A program made the position numbers. Positions 1 through 30,000 of a stretch of 64,000 bases of DNA are shown here, one piece after another. How positions within the stretch are numbered: the first letter of the stretch is position 1; the number at the start of each line of letters is the position of its first letter. The DNA comes from Candidatus Tantalella remota (lineage in GTDB: Bacteria; Omnitrophota; Gorgyraeia; Tantalellales; Tantalellaceae), in assembly GCA_030765685.1 (NCBI GenBank), contig JAVCCB010000050.1:11735-75734 (forward strand). The letters run 5' to 3'.

Positions 1-3000
1 GGCCGGAACTCTTAAATAATGACGCTAACAGGGCTAAACTTGTCGCTGAGCTTAACGGGATCTTTAGCAGATACTGGGGTTCGGCGGGCGTATACGCCTG
101 GGATATTTTTAATGAGCCCGAGATATCGCACAACAACAAAGACGCTCACGACAGGTCTTTCCTTGATATAGGACACGTTAAAGCTCTGGTGGAAGATATC
201 GCTGGAAGTATTAAGGAGCAGAAGGCGCTCGTCACTGTAGGTAGTTTCTCCCGCAGCGAGATGATGAAAAACTGGTATCTGTCTTCTGTGGATATACTTC
301 AGTACCACTGGTATGACAAGAATCCGTATGCTCAGCTTGATTTTCCTGCATCATGGGCTTCTCAGAGAAGGCCTGTTCTCGTTGGTGAGTTCGGCGTAAG
401 GGGTACGTTCCCGGTAGAGGTTAAGAAGGGCGAATGGGCGAAAGCCGCGGAAATGTTCAGGATGAAAGGTATGTCCGGTGCATTTTTGTGGGTAGACGGA
501 CATGATTACAAGCCCGACACAGCTAAAGGTATGCCTACAGCGGAAGAATACGCTGAGTGGTTGCAGGCAAAAGCTCTGAAGGAAAAGCTCGAGCAACAGC
601 AGAAAGAACAGGAAAAAGAGGCACAGAAGAAAGCTATAGAAAAACAGCAGGCCCAGACAAAGAAGCAGAAGAGGACAGCCGGTGTGAGCAGGATCCTTCC
701 GAAAAGACCGCTTGTTTCGAAAAAAGCGTTCAGGGGTATGGTGCATATGCGCGGCAGTCACGGCTTCACTATTCAGGAACTGATGTATGTCGTGGCTACA
801 GTAGGCCTTGTGTCTATAGTGGCTGTGCCAGTGCTGGGTGTGGCCAAGGCAATACTGCTCATCTCAGCGGTAGCGGCCGCGGGTGTGTTCGGAGCAGGCC
901 TGTTTATCGCAGGCAAGGCGCTCAAGGATTCTACAGTAAGTATCCGCGTAAGAGACAGGCTGTCAGACAGGACCGGTTCGGTTATGCACACTCTTTTGCC
1001 GGTGGAAGCACTGGTTGTAGGGACTATTGTCACGGTGGGGATAAATTATGGCGTGTGGACGGCGCTTTTCTGGTCGAGTATAGGTGCTATTGTTTCCGGC
1101 GTGGTAGTATGGACTTTCGACCGTCTGAGAAGGAGACACGAACTGGAAGAAGAGAGTCAGCTTCAGCAGACGATAAAAGAGGCCGGTAATATGGCGGAAG
1201 CATTTACGGGTAAAAAGATGTATCTTGACGCGCTCGTAAAGATGAGAAAGCTTATGGACCGGACACACAAGCTTATAAAGAAGGACAAGAGAATACGCAA
1301 GAAGTTCAAGACGATCCATCATAATGTGGCTATGGGCCATGAAACGGCGATGGATCTTCTGGGATTTTTCAAGGAATATACGGTAATGCAGGTCATGTTC
1401 AGGGGTAAGAAATGGAACATGACCAATAAAGGTCTCCAGGGTGACGGAGCCTGGGGTTCTCTCGCGAATGACGAGAACAGGCTGGCCGCGGCAATGGACA
1501 GAGGGCTTCATACGTTCTATATGGTAGAAGCCGGGAAAGACCTGATTGCTGGCGATCTGCGTTATTTTGCCAACAGTCTTTATTCCAGGCACGCGCAGAC
1601 GGAAGATACCAATGAGACAAAGCCTGACCTCTCTCTAGGAAGGTTGAAAGAGTTGTTGAAGTGGCTTGGAGTACAGGAGTTGGATGCAAAAGAGAAAACC
1701 GCGCTTAAGATGGGGATGGTCCTGCACGATTACGGCCGTCTTATGGAAGGTGAAGCTTCTATAAATATCGAAACCGGCAGGCTGGATGGTCCTACGGGAA
1801 GATTCGGTCTTATGCACAGGGATTCCGGAAGGTATCTGGCAAAAGGTCTTCTGGACGCTCTTAAGGCGAGCGAGCTGGATAAGGAGATCGTACTGTTTCT
1901 TGTAAAACATCACGCTACCTTGTGGGAGCTGTATTCTGAGAAGTACGGCACCGAGTTTATGTCGGATAACACAGCGGAGAACCTTTCGAGCGATCTGTCG
2001 GCATTGATGGACAGCCTCGACAGGAAAGGCCTGCTGGAGTCTCCGGTGTTGCCGGAAGATGTTGCTAGACAGTCTATGGCGGAGAAGATATTGGCCATGC
2101 TGGCTGTCACCGGCATAGCTGACGTTTACGCGTCAGGCGACAGATATTTGAGCAATAACTTCCTGGATAAGGTGGAACAGGTTGTTAATGAGATGACACC
2201 CGCGTTCCGCGCTCCGGAAGGCAGTCGTAAAGATGGTATTGTGCCGGATGGAACAGTATCCCGACAGGGAGACGGGGAGAACGATCCCGGCACCGGTGTT
2301 GGCATGAGTAAAGGGAAAGAAACCAAAAAAGTTATTCCCGGCGTAGAGATAGCTCTGGGTATGTCTGAAGATACGTATGTCGCCCTGAAGAAACAGGGTG
2401 ACGCCGAAGGCAGGGATATCATTGCCGGGCTTATGAAAAAGACAGGCGTTGATATGATAGTACCCCTTACTTCTCTTGACAGAGAGGATATGCTGGAAGA
2501 AATGCAGGAGAAAACAAAAGGTATGGATACTATCTGCGCTATTCTTGATACTGGCGCGATCAATGTCGCTAACGGCATAGTGGATGTGAATGAACTTGAA
2601 GACATAATGGTCAAGTTCGTGTCTACCAGCCGGAAAGACATACTTCGCCTTATGAACCCGCGTCTAAGCGCCCTTAATGAGAAGACGGTCCAGGAAATAC
2701 AGGACGTCTCTCAGCTTAAGAAGGTAGCCAGGATATACGCGAGGCTCTGGAATGATGTAGAGACTCTGGACCTTGTCAGCAAGAGCATTTACGACATGAG
2801 GATAAACAACAGGAATAACGATGTTCTTAGTGGCGTTTCTGTAAGTGACAATGTGACCAGGTATCTGACCGACGGGCCGAAAGATAAAGAAGCCAAGTTC
2901 GTCAGTGTATCTGCTAAAAACGCGGCGGACATGAGGTTTATAGCCAGCACATTAAGGGCTATGGGGATGGATAAGAAGCAGGCGTCCGGGAGAATACAGG

Positions 3001-27000: not shown

Positions 27001-30000
27001 CGGTAATGCCGAGTCTGCCGCGGACATGCTAAAAGATGAGATGCCGCAAGCGGCTATAGGTGAGGAAATCTTGACCAGGGCGCAAAAAGAACTGGATGAC
27101 TTCTACAACTATATACTGGTAACTGTCGGCGACGTTATTCCGGTACCTTCGGGCACATTGCACGCGCTTGGCGCGGGCGTGCAGGTAGTGGAGCCACAGA
27201 TACCCGGAGAGACGCAGTCCATGGAGGACGGCGCTACGTATCCTGTACGGTACTACTTTCCGGGATGCGAAAGGGAAGGGTCTAAGAAAGAACTCGATAT
27301 AGACCGTACCGACGAGATAAAAGCGGAGGTCGTCGTCCTGACGTCACCGGAGATCTTAAGAAAGGATGAGCAGGTAAAGATCGAGCGGCTTCCGGGGGAT
27401 TTTGAGGAGAAGGGGCTGGAAGTCCACAGGATATCTTTGAAAAACGGCGCCCATATGGAAGTTTCTGATATAAAAAGTTTCCATAATCTTGTTGTTGTCG
27501 GTGGAGAGGCTACGGTTGCCATTAATGACAGGGATTATTCTGTTCCGCAGGCGGTTCCTGGCGGAGAGGTATTAATTATTCCCGCTGTAACTGGAAAATA
27601 TACCATTAAAAGCGCCGTCGGGGCGCAGATAATAGACACTTTCATCCCGGTTTGAAGACTGCATTCTTAAGCTACATATCCAATCACATCAAGAGATATC
27701 ATAAGGCCTTAAAGCTTTTTAAAGGACTTTATAAATGATAAGTTGACAGAATATTGAAATTCTTGTAAAATATTTGCGCTTATAGTCGTACAATAAATAG
27801 TAATTTTATCTACTAATTTAATAATAGGGACTACATGGAAAAAGCATCATTTTTACAGGAGCTCAATAGACAGAAAGTATCTTACCTGTTTATCGCGGTA
27901 CCTTTCACTCTATTTTTCGTTTTTCAGCTTGCACCTGTCATAATCTCATTTTTCTGGTCTTTTACGGAATTTAACGTGGTGCATGCGCCGCGGTTCGTCG
28001 GGCTGGCCAACTACAAGAACATATTATTCAATGATCCCCTTTTCTGGAAGGCGATGAGGAACACGGTCCTTTACGTATTAGGTGTTGTTCCCATTGGAGT
28101 ATGCACCGCGCTCTTGTTAGCGGTCGCTATAGACCAGAAAATAAAATTTAAGAACCTTTTTAAATCCATATTTTTTCTGCCCACGGTCACATCTATAATC
28201 GCCGTATCTGTCGTATGGAAATGGCTTTACGCGGGTGAAAAATACGGGTTGATAAACTATGTGATGATAAAGTTGGGGTTTCAGCCTATTGACTGGCTGG
28301 CAAGCCCCACGTGGACGCTTCCGGCGATAATGATAATGTCAATATGGGCCGGGGTGGGGTACAGTATGATAATTTTTCTCGCGGGACTTCAAACCATACC
28401 GCACGTTATGTACGAAGCCGCCGATATCGACGGCGCGGGGTTCTGGCGAAAACTGTTCAACATCACGATACCTCTTTTAAAACCCACGATAGTCTTCGTG
28501 ACCATGATGAGCTTTATTTTCAGTTTTCAGGTGTTCGAGCAGGTATACATCATGACAAGCGGGCAGGGCGGGATAGGCGGGGTACTGGATAGCGCGCTTA
28601 CCATAGTCGCCTATCTCTACGAAAAGGGGTTCGTTAGGTTTGAGATGGGGTACGCCTCGGCGATGGCGTACATAATTTTTATACTGATCTTCCTTCTGAC
28701 GCTGCTTAACAGGCGCTTCATGAAGACTGAGGTGGAATATTGATACGCGAAAAAACCAAATACGGAGGATATAAAGCATAATGGCCGGCAAGCCGATAGC
28801 TATAAGAAGAGATTCATTCACTATCAAGACTTTTGTATATATTTTCCTGATAGCGGGCGCGTCTACTATGCTGGTGCCGTACCTGTGGATGCTAGTGACC
28901 TCCATAAAGCCGCTTGCGGAGATACAGTCGTATCCGCCCAGTTTTATGGTGAAGAACCCCACGCTTGAACCTTACAGGGACCTGTTTCGCATGATACCGA
29001 TGTTCAGGTATATGTTCAACAGCCTTTTTGTGGCGGGCGCTATAACGCTTTTCAACGTTTTTGCCACGTCGCTGGCGGGTTATGCTTTTGCGAAACACAA
29101 GTTCTGGGGCCGGGACAAGCTGTTCTTTCTATTTATCGGGTCGTTGATGATCCCCTGGCAGGTGAACATAATCCCGGCTTTCATCATCGTGAAAAACCTT
29201 GGATGGCTGAACACGTACAAGGGGCTGATAATACCGTCCATGGCATGGTGCGCGTTCGGGATTTTTCTGAACAGGCAGTTCATATACAGCATACCGGACG
29301 ACCTGATAGACGCTGCCAGGATCGACGGATGTAGCGAGTTCATGATATATCGTAAAGTCATTTTGCCCCTGATAAAGCCGGTTCTCGCGACGCTCGCTAT
29401 ATTTACTTTCCTGCAGCAGTGGAACAACTTTGTGTGGCCGCTGATAATAATACATACCAGCGAGATGAGGACAGTGCCGCTCGCGCTTGCTGTTCTTACG
29501 GGACAGTTCGGTGCGAATTTCGGGATGGTAATGGCGGGAGCTGTTGTAGCTACGCTTCCGATGCTCATAGTGTATCTGCTTTTTCAGAAATATATAATAA
29601 AGGGCATAGCTATGACGGGATTATTATGACGAAACCCTGCGGTATGAGGTATAATATATGATGGTTTTAGGGACTAAATTAAAGAGGAGAAGGAAGAAAG
29701 AATGAAGAAATCACTTGGTATTTGTTTTTTGGTATTTGGGTTATGTGCGATAGTCGTTACGGGTTGCGGGAAACAGGAAGCGCTTCCCCCGACAGTTTTA
29801 GATGTACAGGAAGCCGTGGTCGAAAAAACGGCGACCCTTGATATAGTGGAAGTGGCTCCGGGAGAAGAGCTTGCGTATCTTACCGTTATGGCGGCGGAAG
29901 CTTCCAGTTTTGATCAGACGCCGGATTGGGCGCCTGAACCGAACCCGATGTCAGCGGCAGACGGTGATATGCTTACCAGGTGGTCAAGCGACTACATAGA

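Follow-up and report, generated by a model that had tools for sequence, protein, structure and literature searches.

Long multi-enzyme genes with shared terminal modules beside a mannan-utilisation operon in Candidatus Tantalella remota (Omnitrophota)

Introduction

The phylum Omnitrophota is one of the places in the bacterial tree where many unrelated enzyme modules have been described on single, very long chains. Long and giant multi-enzyme open reading frames (ORFs) with phosphoglucomutase/phosphomannomutase (PGM/PMM), ROK, HD and methyltransferase domains are reported by West-Roberts et al. (2023; 10.1101/2023.11.21.568195), together with the “Archaeovorin-type” example, a protein of 39,678 amino acids (aa) from Velamenicoccus archaeovorus; the same class is found in Nielsen and Lui (2026; 10.64898/2026.06.07.730766), as class 1, “multi-enzyme metabolic cluster”, and in Seymour et al. 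(2023; PMC10066038). These ORFs are mostly unannotated, too large for experiments, and predicted to be exported despite their cytoplasm-type enzymes; their N-terminal regions “generally lack identifiable domains” according to West-Roberts et al. (2023). Here we describe a cluster of four long genes (g1 to g4) in a stretch of 64,000 nucleotides (nt) from Candidatus Tantalella remota (assembly GCA_030765685.1, contig JAVCCB010000050.1, positions 11,735 to 75,734), to which we will refer as “the window”. The description of the genus, from Ace Lake in Antarctica, presents it as a sugar fermenter (PMC8542988). The contig measures 78.8 kb.

The four genes are all on the plus strand and occupy 43% of the window, and the database annotation of g2, g3 and g4 (MDP8299153-55) is “hypothetical protein” in all three cases. 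A preliminary description, made from the sequence alone, could not place the cluster in a described system; a place for it does exist, given that long and giant multi-enzyme proteins had already been reported from Omnitrophota. On the basis of homology, g1, g2 and g3 are members of an Omnitrophota-specific family of long multi-enzyme proteins with shared start and end modules, hereafter the head and the tail; g4 is not a member of that family, and is a soluble three-part enzyme, the product of a fused three-gene operon. Taken as a whole, the locus is best explained (with a probability of about 0.6) by a family of head-and-tail proteins, the middles of which were built by fusion of operon genes. 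Multi-enzyme long and giant proteins were known in the phylum; no description of the head, the tail, the tandem arrays, the fusion series or the junction motif was found in the available passages of West-Roberts et al. (2023) and of Nielsen and Lui (2026), and these elements are therefore classed as new. With proteins of about three thousand amino acids (3 kaa), the locus offers a tractable small model for the giant-gene puzzle of the phylum.

The Head-and-Tail Family

The first ~560 aa of g2 and g3, the head, have many homologs, all of them from metagenome-assembled genomes (MAGs) of Omnitrophota; a scan of one genome per GTDB species returned at least 574 relatives, several per genome. Wherever it could be checked in 79 fetched loci the head begins the ORF, with an in-frame stop ~30-330 nt upstream, and most head ORFs run off the 10-kb flank, and are thus longer than 3860 aa. 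The N-terminus of the family is uniform and resembles a Sec signal, with 2-4 basic residues, 10-13 hydrophobic ones and then an AxA|Q-type site. The head part of g2 and g3 has no counterpart in Pfam or NCBIfam, and precomputed Pfam annotation was empty for all 37 homologs (37/37). Residues D79, H81, E109, G110, R449, G474, G475 and H477 are invariant in 31 aligned heads, H81 being part of a QDAH motif and H477 of a GGxH motif. The AlphaFold2 (AF2) model of the head has a pLDDT of 81 and a Foldseek search with it gave no match with E < 1e-3; with moderate confidence, the model suggests an erythromycin-esterase/TIKI/TraB-superfamily fold with a helical insert of ~300 aa and a His…Glu…His set. 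The spacing of 28 residues between His and Glu is the same as in EreB/EreC. Given this invariant set, the head is probably an active hydrolase. Many of the head-bearing MAGs (L001-L004, L008, L011, L013 and others, in our numbering of related loci) are titled “uncultured Planctomycetia … binchicken”, a label which is probably coarse or outdated.

The tail is defined by the final ~400 aa of g1 and of g2, between which there is homology (z = 11). A profile search of 1.84 billion cluster representatives returned 132 relatives, 62 of them at E <= 1e-30; in the long carriers (1.5-7.9 kaa) the match lies at, or no more than ~170 residues from, the C-terminus. The head stands at residue ~1 in 33 of the 57 tail carriers of at least 1500 aa, most of the others looking 5'-truncated, and head-and-tail relatives reach 7.8 kaa. 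Both modules are definable and can serve as search queries. The tail of g3 is of another type, matching the C-terminal end of the ORF upstream of the head gene in L035 (9e-17) and the tails of L080, L082 and L090. Its homology to the g1/g2 tail was considered and rejected, as pairwise comparison gave z <= 0.6 and the hidden Markov model (HMM) of the g1/g2 tail was silent, only a short C-terminal pattern being shared by eye.

Tandem arrays are typical of the head-and-tail family: of 38 related loci, 29 have an ORF of at least 1000 aa on the same strand whose end lies no more than 1.5 kb upstream of the head gene, and 12 of these ORFs carry the tail. In nine loci (L004, L022, L024, L026, L031, L033, L055, L066 and L071), an ORF of ~1020-1180 aa lies directly upstream of the head gene, on the same strand and at a distance of ~0.4-1.2 kb. 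Four of these preceding ORFs were tested, and all four proved to be AcrB/RND transporters (Pfam ACR_tran, 1e-213 to 1e-222), which suggests a conserved pump-plus-long-gene unit in those loci, absent from the window. Pairs of heads were also found on the same contig, 39 kb apart in CAYPCX010000002.1 (L011/L077) and 29 kb apart in PLNN01000019.1 (L055/L034), with a tail directly before the second head in L077; if the ORF is continuous, these pairs would correspond to head-and-tail genes of up to ~13 kaa.

Fusion of Operon Neighbors

For the fusion series, metagenomes were scanned with g4 and the modules of the recovered loci were then mapped. In L090 three separate genes, measuring 594, 573 and 392 aa, come after a g3-type gene and correspond to residues 15-558, 565-1107 and 1135-1521 of g4, and in L083, L084 and L085 PMM and phosphomannose isomerase (PMI) are separate adjacent genes. 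In the window and in L082, the three parts are fused as g4, 3' of a g3-type gene. Finally, L080/L089, L081 and L118 possess a single gene of ~2800 aa made of the equivalents of g3 5-810, g4 5-1521 (52% identity) and the g3 tail, with no separate g4. The PMM cassette of the g3-type genes varies as well, being of AlgC type in the window and of g4 type in L082 and L090. The search of metagenomes for syntenic giant-gene arrays put forward in the preliminary description did yield arrays, with the cassette separate, fused or inside the g3-type gene depending on the locus. Across these orthologous loci the enzymes are thus encoded by separate operon genes, by a three-part fusion or within a head-and-tail gene, and their comparison indicates that the long ORFs grow or shrink through fusion and fission of operon neighbors.

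A mannan-utilisation operon lies directly 3' of g4 and encodes two ABC permeases, a GH113+F5/8C protein, two CBM27-like proteins, a second GH113 protein, a ROK kinase and a solute-binding protein. The same operon is found downstream of PMI in L080, L084, L090 and L110, collinear and with 57-88% identity to the window, and the synteny holds for all loci in which the fetched sequence reaches far enough downstream. As the downstream operon is conserved, the enzyme content of g3 and g4 forms part of a conserved mannan/mannose utilisation unit, which links the enzymes of these long proteins to a concrete physiology. Further 3' of the operon (38211-41391) there are genes for a PMT_2-type glycosyltransferase (538 aa), a GT2 protein (237 aa) and a YdjC-like deacetylase (290 aa); these proteins might use activated mannose.

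The four giant ORFs of the preliminary description were reproduced in position, length, strand and coverage, g1 measuring 1155 aa, and the question arises whether assembly chimeras or sequencing errors might have fused ordinary genes into long ORFs. The source is a short-read MAG contig and many of the database homologs are contig-end fragments, circumstances under which such artefacts could arise. The architectures are nonetheless repeated in independent assemblies: the ortholog of g2 in L001, another MAG, shares 82% identity with it over 1785 aa; two different samples yielded L080 and L089; the g3 layout is repeated in L082 and L090; and the architectures of g3 and g4 were found again on contigs from several unrelated metagenomes. 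Besides, purifying selection extends over the entire compared part of g2, since the ratio of nonsynonymous to synonymous substitution rates (dN/dS) against L001 is 0.16 overall (1782 codons) and 0.09-0.32 in each 200-codon window, stretches with no recognisable domain included. Nor would chance be expected to leave 3104 codons open at 47% GC. An artefact is therefore extremely improbable, and the four ORFs are genuine genes.

According to the explanation that we favor, a complete member of the family consists of a Sec-signal-like N-terminus with a head of ~550 aa, a variable enzyme middle, sometimes including a four-helix membrane cluster, and a conserved C-terminal tail. The middles would expand through fusion of adjacent operon genes, and fusion may provide fixed stoichiometry, co-expression and co-localisation of the enzymes converting imported mannan-derived mannose. 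In the predicted route, the ROK kinase would produce mannose 6-phosphate, which PMI would convert to fructose 6-phosphate, and PMM together with the nucleotidyltransferase would lead to NDP-mannose. What the data show is that the genes are real and, by homology, members of the family; the fold of the head, the layout with head and tail at the two ends, the series of fusions and the conserved synteny are shown as well. The catalytic activities, the cellular location and the roles of head and tail in this scheme are predictions.

Age of the Paralogs

The preliminary description had read g3 as the N-terminal module of g2 joined to the whole of g4, and the array as a product of in-situ duplication and domain shuffling. 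All-against-all BLASTP aligned g2 4-522 with g3 5-521 at 30-31% identity (E 8e-74), so that the N-terminal modules are indeed homologous and collinear, as ancient paralogs rather than as a recent copy. The relationship with g4 is close only for PMI (g3 2299-2700 against g4 1121-1521, 54-54.7% identity, E 6e-131). Between the PMM modules, which are only distantly related and belong to separate subfamilies, identity is 28% over 119 aa (z = 10), and g3 960-1700 shows no pairwise similarity to g4 1-570 (z = -0.1 vs shuffles). The sole link between the nucleotidyltransferase-like parts of both proteins is at profile level (hhalign probability 84%, E 8e-6, 154 columns, around GxGxRxSPxTQ). The domain order is thus collinear, but g3 is not a copy of g4. 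The extra tail of ~350 aa that had been attributed to g3 is present (aa 2701-3060).

A recent in-situ tandem duplication with domain shuffling as the origin of all four genes would explain why g2 and g3 have a head in common, g3 and g4 a PMI (at 54%), and g1 and g2 a tail and a linker, and would be in line with the swaps of g3-type and g4-type cassettes among relatives. The sequence distances speak of older events. The g3 head shares 61-72% identity with g3-type heads elsewhere and the g2 head 46-82% with g2-type heads, and the two heads only 31% with each other; the paralogs thus predate the divergence of the compared genomes (31% against 61-82% to orthologs). Similarly, the PMI of g3 is closer to that of L080 (62%) than to that of g4 (54.7%), and no DNA repeat longer than ~30 nt links the four genes. 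With heads and PMI nearer to orthologs elsewhere than to each other and long DNA repeats lacking, the duplications must be old; tandem head-and-tail arrays are, moreover, widespread in the phylum. A recent origin of the array is thus very unlikely and, as a claim about a recent event, largely refuted; what stands of the earlier proposal is modular mosaicism, with module swaps and with fusion and fission at orthologous loci.

Junction Motifs and Possible Self-Processing

The sequence GTPGVNAI occurs twice in g3 (aa 665 and 2297), so that the doubled GTPGVNAI(G)KG reported previously at its module junctions is real; it is not phylum-wide, being specific to the g3 orthogroup. Of the wider pattern [TS]PG..[AT][VILMA], g3, L080, L081 and L090 each have exactly two copies, the truncated L118 has one and L082 none. 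The chance expectation is 0.03-0.06 per protein, with 4 matches in 251,000 residues of other long ORFs, figures that are optimistic since the pattern was widened after the orthologs had been inspected. The first site lies ~100 aa past the head, just before a module with an HExxH motif, and the second ~10-15 aa before the start of the stand-alone PMI; this positional conservation within linkers that otherwise appear unconserved is striking. The HExxH module comprises ~130 aa after the first motif, and HPG and HExxH are invariant in six orthologs. Its profile matched MJ1213/projannalysin (4qhf, E 0.0095) in the PDB, the four matches obtained (4/4) being minigluzincins, which have their HExxH zinc site in a minimal catalytic scaffold of ~110 aa, and Pfam metallopeptidase matches were weak; the module may be minigluzincin-like, although the assignment is borderline.

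These elements would suit self-processing polyproteins, in which the long ORFs are translated whole and cut at the junction motifs by a peptidase encoded in cis, either the HExxH module, the Ere/TIKI-like head or both. The signal-bearing head alone would then reach the envelope, and the enzymes would be freed in the cytoplasm, an arrangement that fits an origin from fused operons and would resolve the conflict of location discussed below. The motif is found at the same two boundaries in g3, L080, L081 and L090 and once in L118, above the chance expectation; its second copy falls in a former intergenic joint; and the HExxH module directly follows the first copy in six of six orthologs. In addition, West-Roberts et al. 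(2023) suggested that peptidase domains might cleave giant proteins. On the other hand, besides the widening of the pattern and the borderline peptidase assignment, the motif is missing from L082, neither g1 nor g2 has a comparable junction motif conserved beyond close relatives, and the conserved linker might just as well serve as a hinge or for docking. Self-processing is accordingly a tentative proposal, somewhat unlikely on balance. The more general idea that the long and giant proteins of Omnitrophota are operons turned polyproteins, through stepwise fusion between a common head and tail followed by cleavage in cis, with the head going to the envelope and the enzymes staying in the cytoplasm, is speculative and we regard it as unlikely. 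If true, it would be a bacterial counterpart of viral polyprotein expression and would explain cytoplasm-type enzymes behind signal peptides; the giant genes of the phylum would be annotated and interpreted differently if fusion and processing hold.

Cellular Location and Weighing of the Explanation

From the Sec-signal-like start, export of g3 is predicted, which conflicts with the orthology of its PMM and PMI modules to signal-less stand-alone genes for enzymes using phosphosugars. The same conflict between export and cytoplasmic enzymes is noted in published work on Omnitrophota giants. It could be taken at face value, the whole chains being secreted or surface-anchored envelope or predation proteins that act on glycans and sugars of hosts or prey. 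Such a role has been proposed for Omnitrophota giant proteins in that literature, and would agree with the uniform N-terminus of the head family, with the GH5-like domain of g1 and with the glycoside hydrolases and carbohydrate-binding modules encoded next to the array. We nevertheless consider it quite unlikely, since PMM and PMI have signal-less stand-alone orthologs in sister loci, g4 has no signal peptide, and the Radical_SAM or ARMT1-like phosphatase domains borne by other head-and-tail proteins represent chemistry typical of the cytoplasm. Furthermore, the adjoining operon serves sugar utilisation by way of an importer, and neither genes for type II secretion or pili in the window nor adhesin repeats were found.

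Several observations also weigh against the explanation that we favor, a head-and-tail multi-enzyme family growing by operon-gene fusion. The N-terminus of g3 resembles a cleavable Sec signal peptide and a hydrophobicity scan gave no other hydrophobic segment, so that phosphosugar enzymes are predicted to be exported to a place in which one would not expect ATP, GTP and phosphosugars. No significant family match was obtained for most of g1 and g2, and the HD, methyltransferase, kinase-like and nucleotidyltransferase calls are all under curated thresholds. Homology of the tail of g3 to the g1/g2 tail could not be demonstrated, and the AF2 model of the latter is unusable (pLDDT 49) because word-indexed searches (with a single sequence and with a 20-sequence profile) found two proteins each and left the alignment shallow. 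With respect to the described giants, the long proteins of the window are, at ~3 kaa (> 1155 aa for the truncated g1), 3-10-fold under the studied sets (>= 10 kaa in the catalogue of Nielsen and Lui; genes > 90 kb in West-Roberts et al.). A SecA-DEAD-like domain and/or an N-terminal C39/S8 peptidase is reported for most giants of full length; no such domains were detected in g1 to g4 (Pfam, E up to 0.01-1).

Features of the Four Genes

The features of the four genes and their surroundings are collected in Table 1. The truncated g1 is read as the C-terminal half of a GH5-like domain, a K/E/Q-rich coiled stretch, four hydrophobic helices, an HD-like region, a linker and the tail. In g2, the head is followed by a linker, a methyltransferase-like region, a hydrophobic cluster of four helices, a Ser/Asp/Glu tract, two kinase-like repeats and the tail. 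The linker RQG(D/S)GE(N/S)DP...GMS(K/E)G that the preliminary description saw in both proteins is indeed shared (54.5% identity over 22 aa, E 0.012). L001, the closest relative, has it as well and, far from being phylum-wide, RQGxGExDP..GMSxG was found solely in the window and that relative. The methyltransferase-like region of g2 has no Pfam match; its profile gave twelve weak PDB matches (E 0.04-0.8), all of them (12/12) to S-adenosylmethionine (SAM) methyltransferases. The kinase-like repeats resemble each other (z = 5.9), with weak PDB matches (KSR kinases, E 0.2-0.5) and support at motif level. The strongly acidic Ser/Asp/Glu tract, DDDESSSSSEDEESSSSSSSSEDG (8253-8324, aa 1452-1475), lies directly after the hydrophobic helix cluster. 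With g2, g3 aa 520-1700 and g4 aa 1-560, no significant match came from permissive Pfam/NCBIfam searches or from sequence and profile searches of the PDB.

The order in g3 is head, junction motif 1, HExxH module, nucleotidyltransferase-like region, PMM of AlgC type, junction motif 2, PMI and g3-type tail, the only hydrophobic segment being the N-terminal one. Its nucleotidyltransferase-like region is tentative, as the PDB profile search gave no supporting match. Besides its nucleotidyltransferase-like/beta-helix part (aa 1-560), g4 contains PMM (aa 572-1100) and PMI (aa 1135-1521), and has neither head, tail nor, in the hydrophobicity scan, any hydrophobic segment. The assignment of the PMM modules from sequence is solid in both proteins (Pfam E 2e-21 to 4e-5 overall): that of g3 matches Pfam PGM_PMM domains I-III only (2e-15 to 2e-10), with Pseudomonas aeruginosa PMM/PGM 1K35 as best PDB match (4e-31), and that of g4 matches domains I-IV, with 4HJH as best match (5e-80); the phosphoserine (T/G-x-S-H-x-P) and metal (D-x-D-x-D-R) loops read ITASHLP and FDVDGDR in g3, and VTGSHIP and TDGDSDR in g4. 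A PMI-like cupin is also predicted in g3 and g4. Pfam PMI_typeI_cat and MPI_cupin are below cut-off in both, and NCBIfam manA (TIGR00218) matches g4 at E 3e-12 with 46 bits against a cut-off of 116; the motifs LSVQFHDTKNE and GTLHALG are present, and may correspond to the Zn-ligand motifs of ManA-like enzymes (Q-x-H … E … H). The first part of g4 (aa 1-560) gave Pfam NTP_transferase at E 0.016 (three of six orthologs), Fucose_pyrophosphorylase at E 0.028 (one of six) and glgC at E 0.053, with nothing relevant in PDB profile searches. It contains the sequence GRGERMSPITQ, comparable to the signature G-x-G-x-R-x-x-P-x-T, and is a candidate sugar-1-phosphate nucleotidyltransferase with a left-handed beta-helix. 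Thus, of the domains listed in the preliminary description, PMM is solid, PMI is sub-cut-off with manA support, the TraB-like head is backed by its fold and HExxH is conserved with a borderline assignment; the GH5-like, HD, methyltransferase and nucleotidyltransferase entries are weak or below cut-off, and the kinase-like one stays at motif level.

The spacers had been described as bearing promoters or repeats. The heptamer repeats are real; promoter-like sites are present and no commoner than in shuffled sequence (34 vs 29.5 +/- 4.8), so that no conclusion on transcription units is drawn beyond the clear hairpin after g3. Other 7-nt arrays were observed at 29715-29739, 36661-36694, 36939-36972, 41745-41768, 42854-42872 and 46236-46254, mostly in intergenic positions, with the exception of 29715-29739, at the start of a GH113 ORF; the heptamer units of the window include CAGTGAC, GTTTACA (x12), TTAGTAT (x5, two arrays) and AACAGTA. 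These repeats could be regulatory or slippage-prone.

Table 1. Positions in the window of the four genes, their modules and adjoining features (aa, residues of the protein concerned).
Feature	Position	Strand	Remarks
g1	3..3470	+	ORF open at 5' window edge; 1155 aa, stop-free
g1 GH5-like C-terminal half	aa 1-170		motifs FNEPE, VGEFG; PDB 9gmj E 0.002, GH5 mannanase 3ziz E 0.025; weak
g1 four hydrophobic helices	aa 259-375		hydrophobicity scan
g1 HD-like region	aa ~562-675		Pfam HD E 0.0078, below cut-off; weak
g1 linker	aa 750-771		RQGDGENDP..GMSKG
g1 tail (g1/g2 type)	2325..3467 (aa ~775-1155)	+	HMM E 1e-104; ends ...NYERILIAA-COOH
7-nt tandem repeats	3640..3688	none	CAGTGAC/CAGTGAT, CTGATGA; g1-g2 spacer
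Promoter-like site	3813-3841		g1-g2 spacer
g2	3900..13214	+	MDP8299153.1; 3104 aa, stop-free
g2 head	3900..5579	+	signal-peptide-like start and Ere/TIKI/TraB/ChaN-fold domain with ~300-aa helical insert
g2 linker	aa 665-686
g2 class-I SAM-methyltransferase-like region	6537..6989 (aa ~880-1030)	+	LEIGGG ... RVLNPGG
g2 hydrophobic cluster, ~4 helices	7917..8234 (aa ~1340-1445)	+	hydrophobicity scan
g2 two kinase-like repeats	8937..10979 (aa ~1680-1900, ~2140-2360)	+	VVK ... RGVxDxDxKxxNYGYD ... D
g2 tail (g1/g2 type)	12012..13211	+	ends ...EILVKA-COOH
g3	13400..22582	+	MDP8299154.1; 3060 aa, stop-free
g3 head	13400..15079	+	paralog of g2 head
Junction motif 1	15392..15412 (aa 665-671)	+	TPGVNAI; same position occupied in L080, L081, L090, L118
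g3 HExxH module	15425..15799 (aa 676-800)	+	HPG and HExxH invariant in six orthologs
g3 nucleotidyltransferase-like region, tentative	16277..18079 (aa ~960-1560)	+	signature GGQASRFSPIT
g3 PMM/PGM module	18500..20119	+	TASHLP phosphoserine loop, FDVDGDR metal loop
Junction motif 2	20288..20308 (aa 2297-2303)	+	TPGVNAI; ~10 aa upstream of stand-alone PMI start point
g3 PMI-like cupin module	20336..21499	+	LSVQFHDTKNE ... GTLHALG; weak Pfam PMI matches
g3-type tail	21668..22579 (aa ~2757-3060)	+	invisible to g1/g2-tail HMM
Terminator-like hairpin 3' of g3	22604..22633	- (scan call)	palindromic stem between A and T runs
GTTTACA heptamer x12	22964..23052	none	upstream of g4; overlaps promoter-like (-35) hexamers
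g4	23090..27655	+	MDP8299155.1; 1521 aa, stop-free
Mannan-utilisation operon	27835..36660	+	Pfam; directly 3' of g4

Remainder of the Window

Within the first 42 kb, a minus-strand ORF of 303 aa (37036-37947), flanked by TTAGTAT heptamer arrays and with no Pfam match, is the sole sizeable one free of overlap with plus-strand ORFs. Further along there are a tRNA gene (42136-42218, minus strand), SmpB (42386-42841) and tmRNA (43028-43409). Directly after the tmRNA gene (43028-64000) the GC content falls from ~0.48 to 0.34-0.40, and in this low-GC part there are genes for a primase (PriCT_1/RepB_primase) and a DUF3987 protein, for two serine recombinases/resolvases and for a GmrSD nuclease, besides a type I restriction-modification system with two adjacent HsdM-type N6 DNA methylase genes (497 and 494 aa, 55038-58012) followed by one HsdS and one HsdR. 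The part has the appearance of a genomic island that integrated at the tmRNA gene.

Comparison with Known Systems

The statement of the preliminary description that the array is no adhesin, non-ribosomal peptide synthetase (NRPS) or polyketide synthase (PKS) has been borne out, no defining domains or repeats having been found. PKS/NRPS arrays resemble the locus in their tandem, same-strand, very long modular genes and in their conserved terminal modules, which could in principle serve for docking; the modules of g1 to g4 are, however, not repeated assembly-line units, and Pfam searches of the four proteins gave no ketosynthase, acyltransferase, condensation, adenylation or carrier-protein domains. 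RTX/MARTX proteins or giant adhesins were discarded, with neither repeat arrays (RTX or Ig-like) nor matching Pfam domains, as was a phage-related reading, with no defining domain. Viral and MARTX-type polyproteins have in common with g3 several enzymes per chain, a short joint motif and candidate peptidase modules in cis; in g3 cleavage is a candidate read from the sequence, and the modules are housekeeping sugar enzymes instead of toxins. None of the typical MARTX features (cysteine protease domain, RTX repeats, type I secretion signal) was detected in g1 to g4.

At the level of single modules, the head shares with the TIKI/TraB/ChaN/erythromycin-esterase superfamily a predicted alpha/beta fold, and its invariant His(81), Glu(109) and His(477) may correspond to the catalytic His/Glu/His set of the superfamily (two GxxH-like motifs); it differs in lacking any Pfam (TraB, Erythromycin esterase, ChaN) or sequence-level match, in its helical insertion of ~300 aa and in its placement as the N-terminal module of very long proteins. 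For g4, the nearest counterparts are the bifunctional PMI-GMP enzymes (type II PMI/mannose-1-phosphate guanylyltransferase), such as AlgA, XanB and WbpW, with a nucleotidyltransferase-like N-terminal part and a cupin PMI C-terminal part in one chain devoted to mannose activation. Unlike them, g4 has a complete four-domain PMM in between, a PMI like type I ManA (TIGR00218, 3e-12) and a very divergent nucleotidyltransferase part (Pfam E 0.016), and lies by a mannan catabolic operon, not in an exopolysaccharide or lipopolysaccharide cluster.

The described giants of Omnitrophota remain the closest system. No HEAT or glycosyltransferase domains were detected in g1 to g3, no type II secretion or pilus genes lie nearby, and there are no tandem protein repeats in the four proteins. 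In common with the giants, g1 to g3 have the phylum, many unrelated enzyme modules per chain (PGM/PMM and methyltransferase-, HD- and kinase-like ones), a signal peptide and/or transmembrane helices and mostly Pfam-dark sequence, and the window shares with them a site beside genes for carbohydrate import and glycoside hydrolases.

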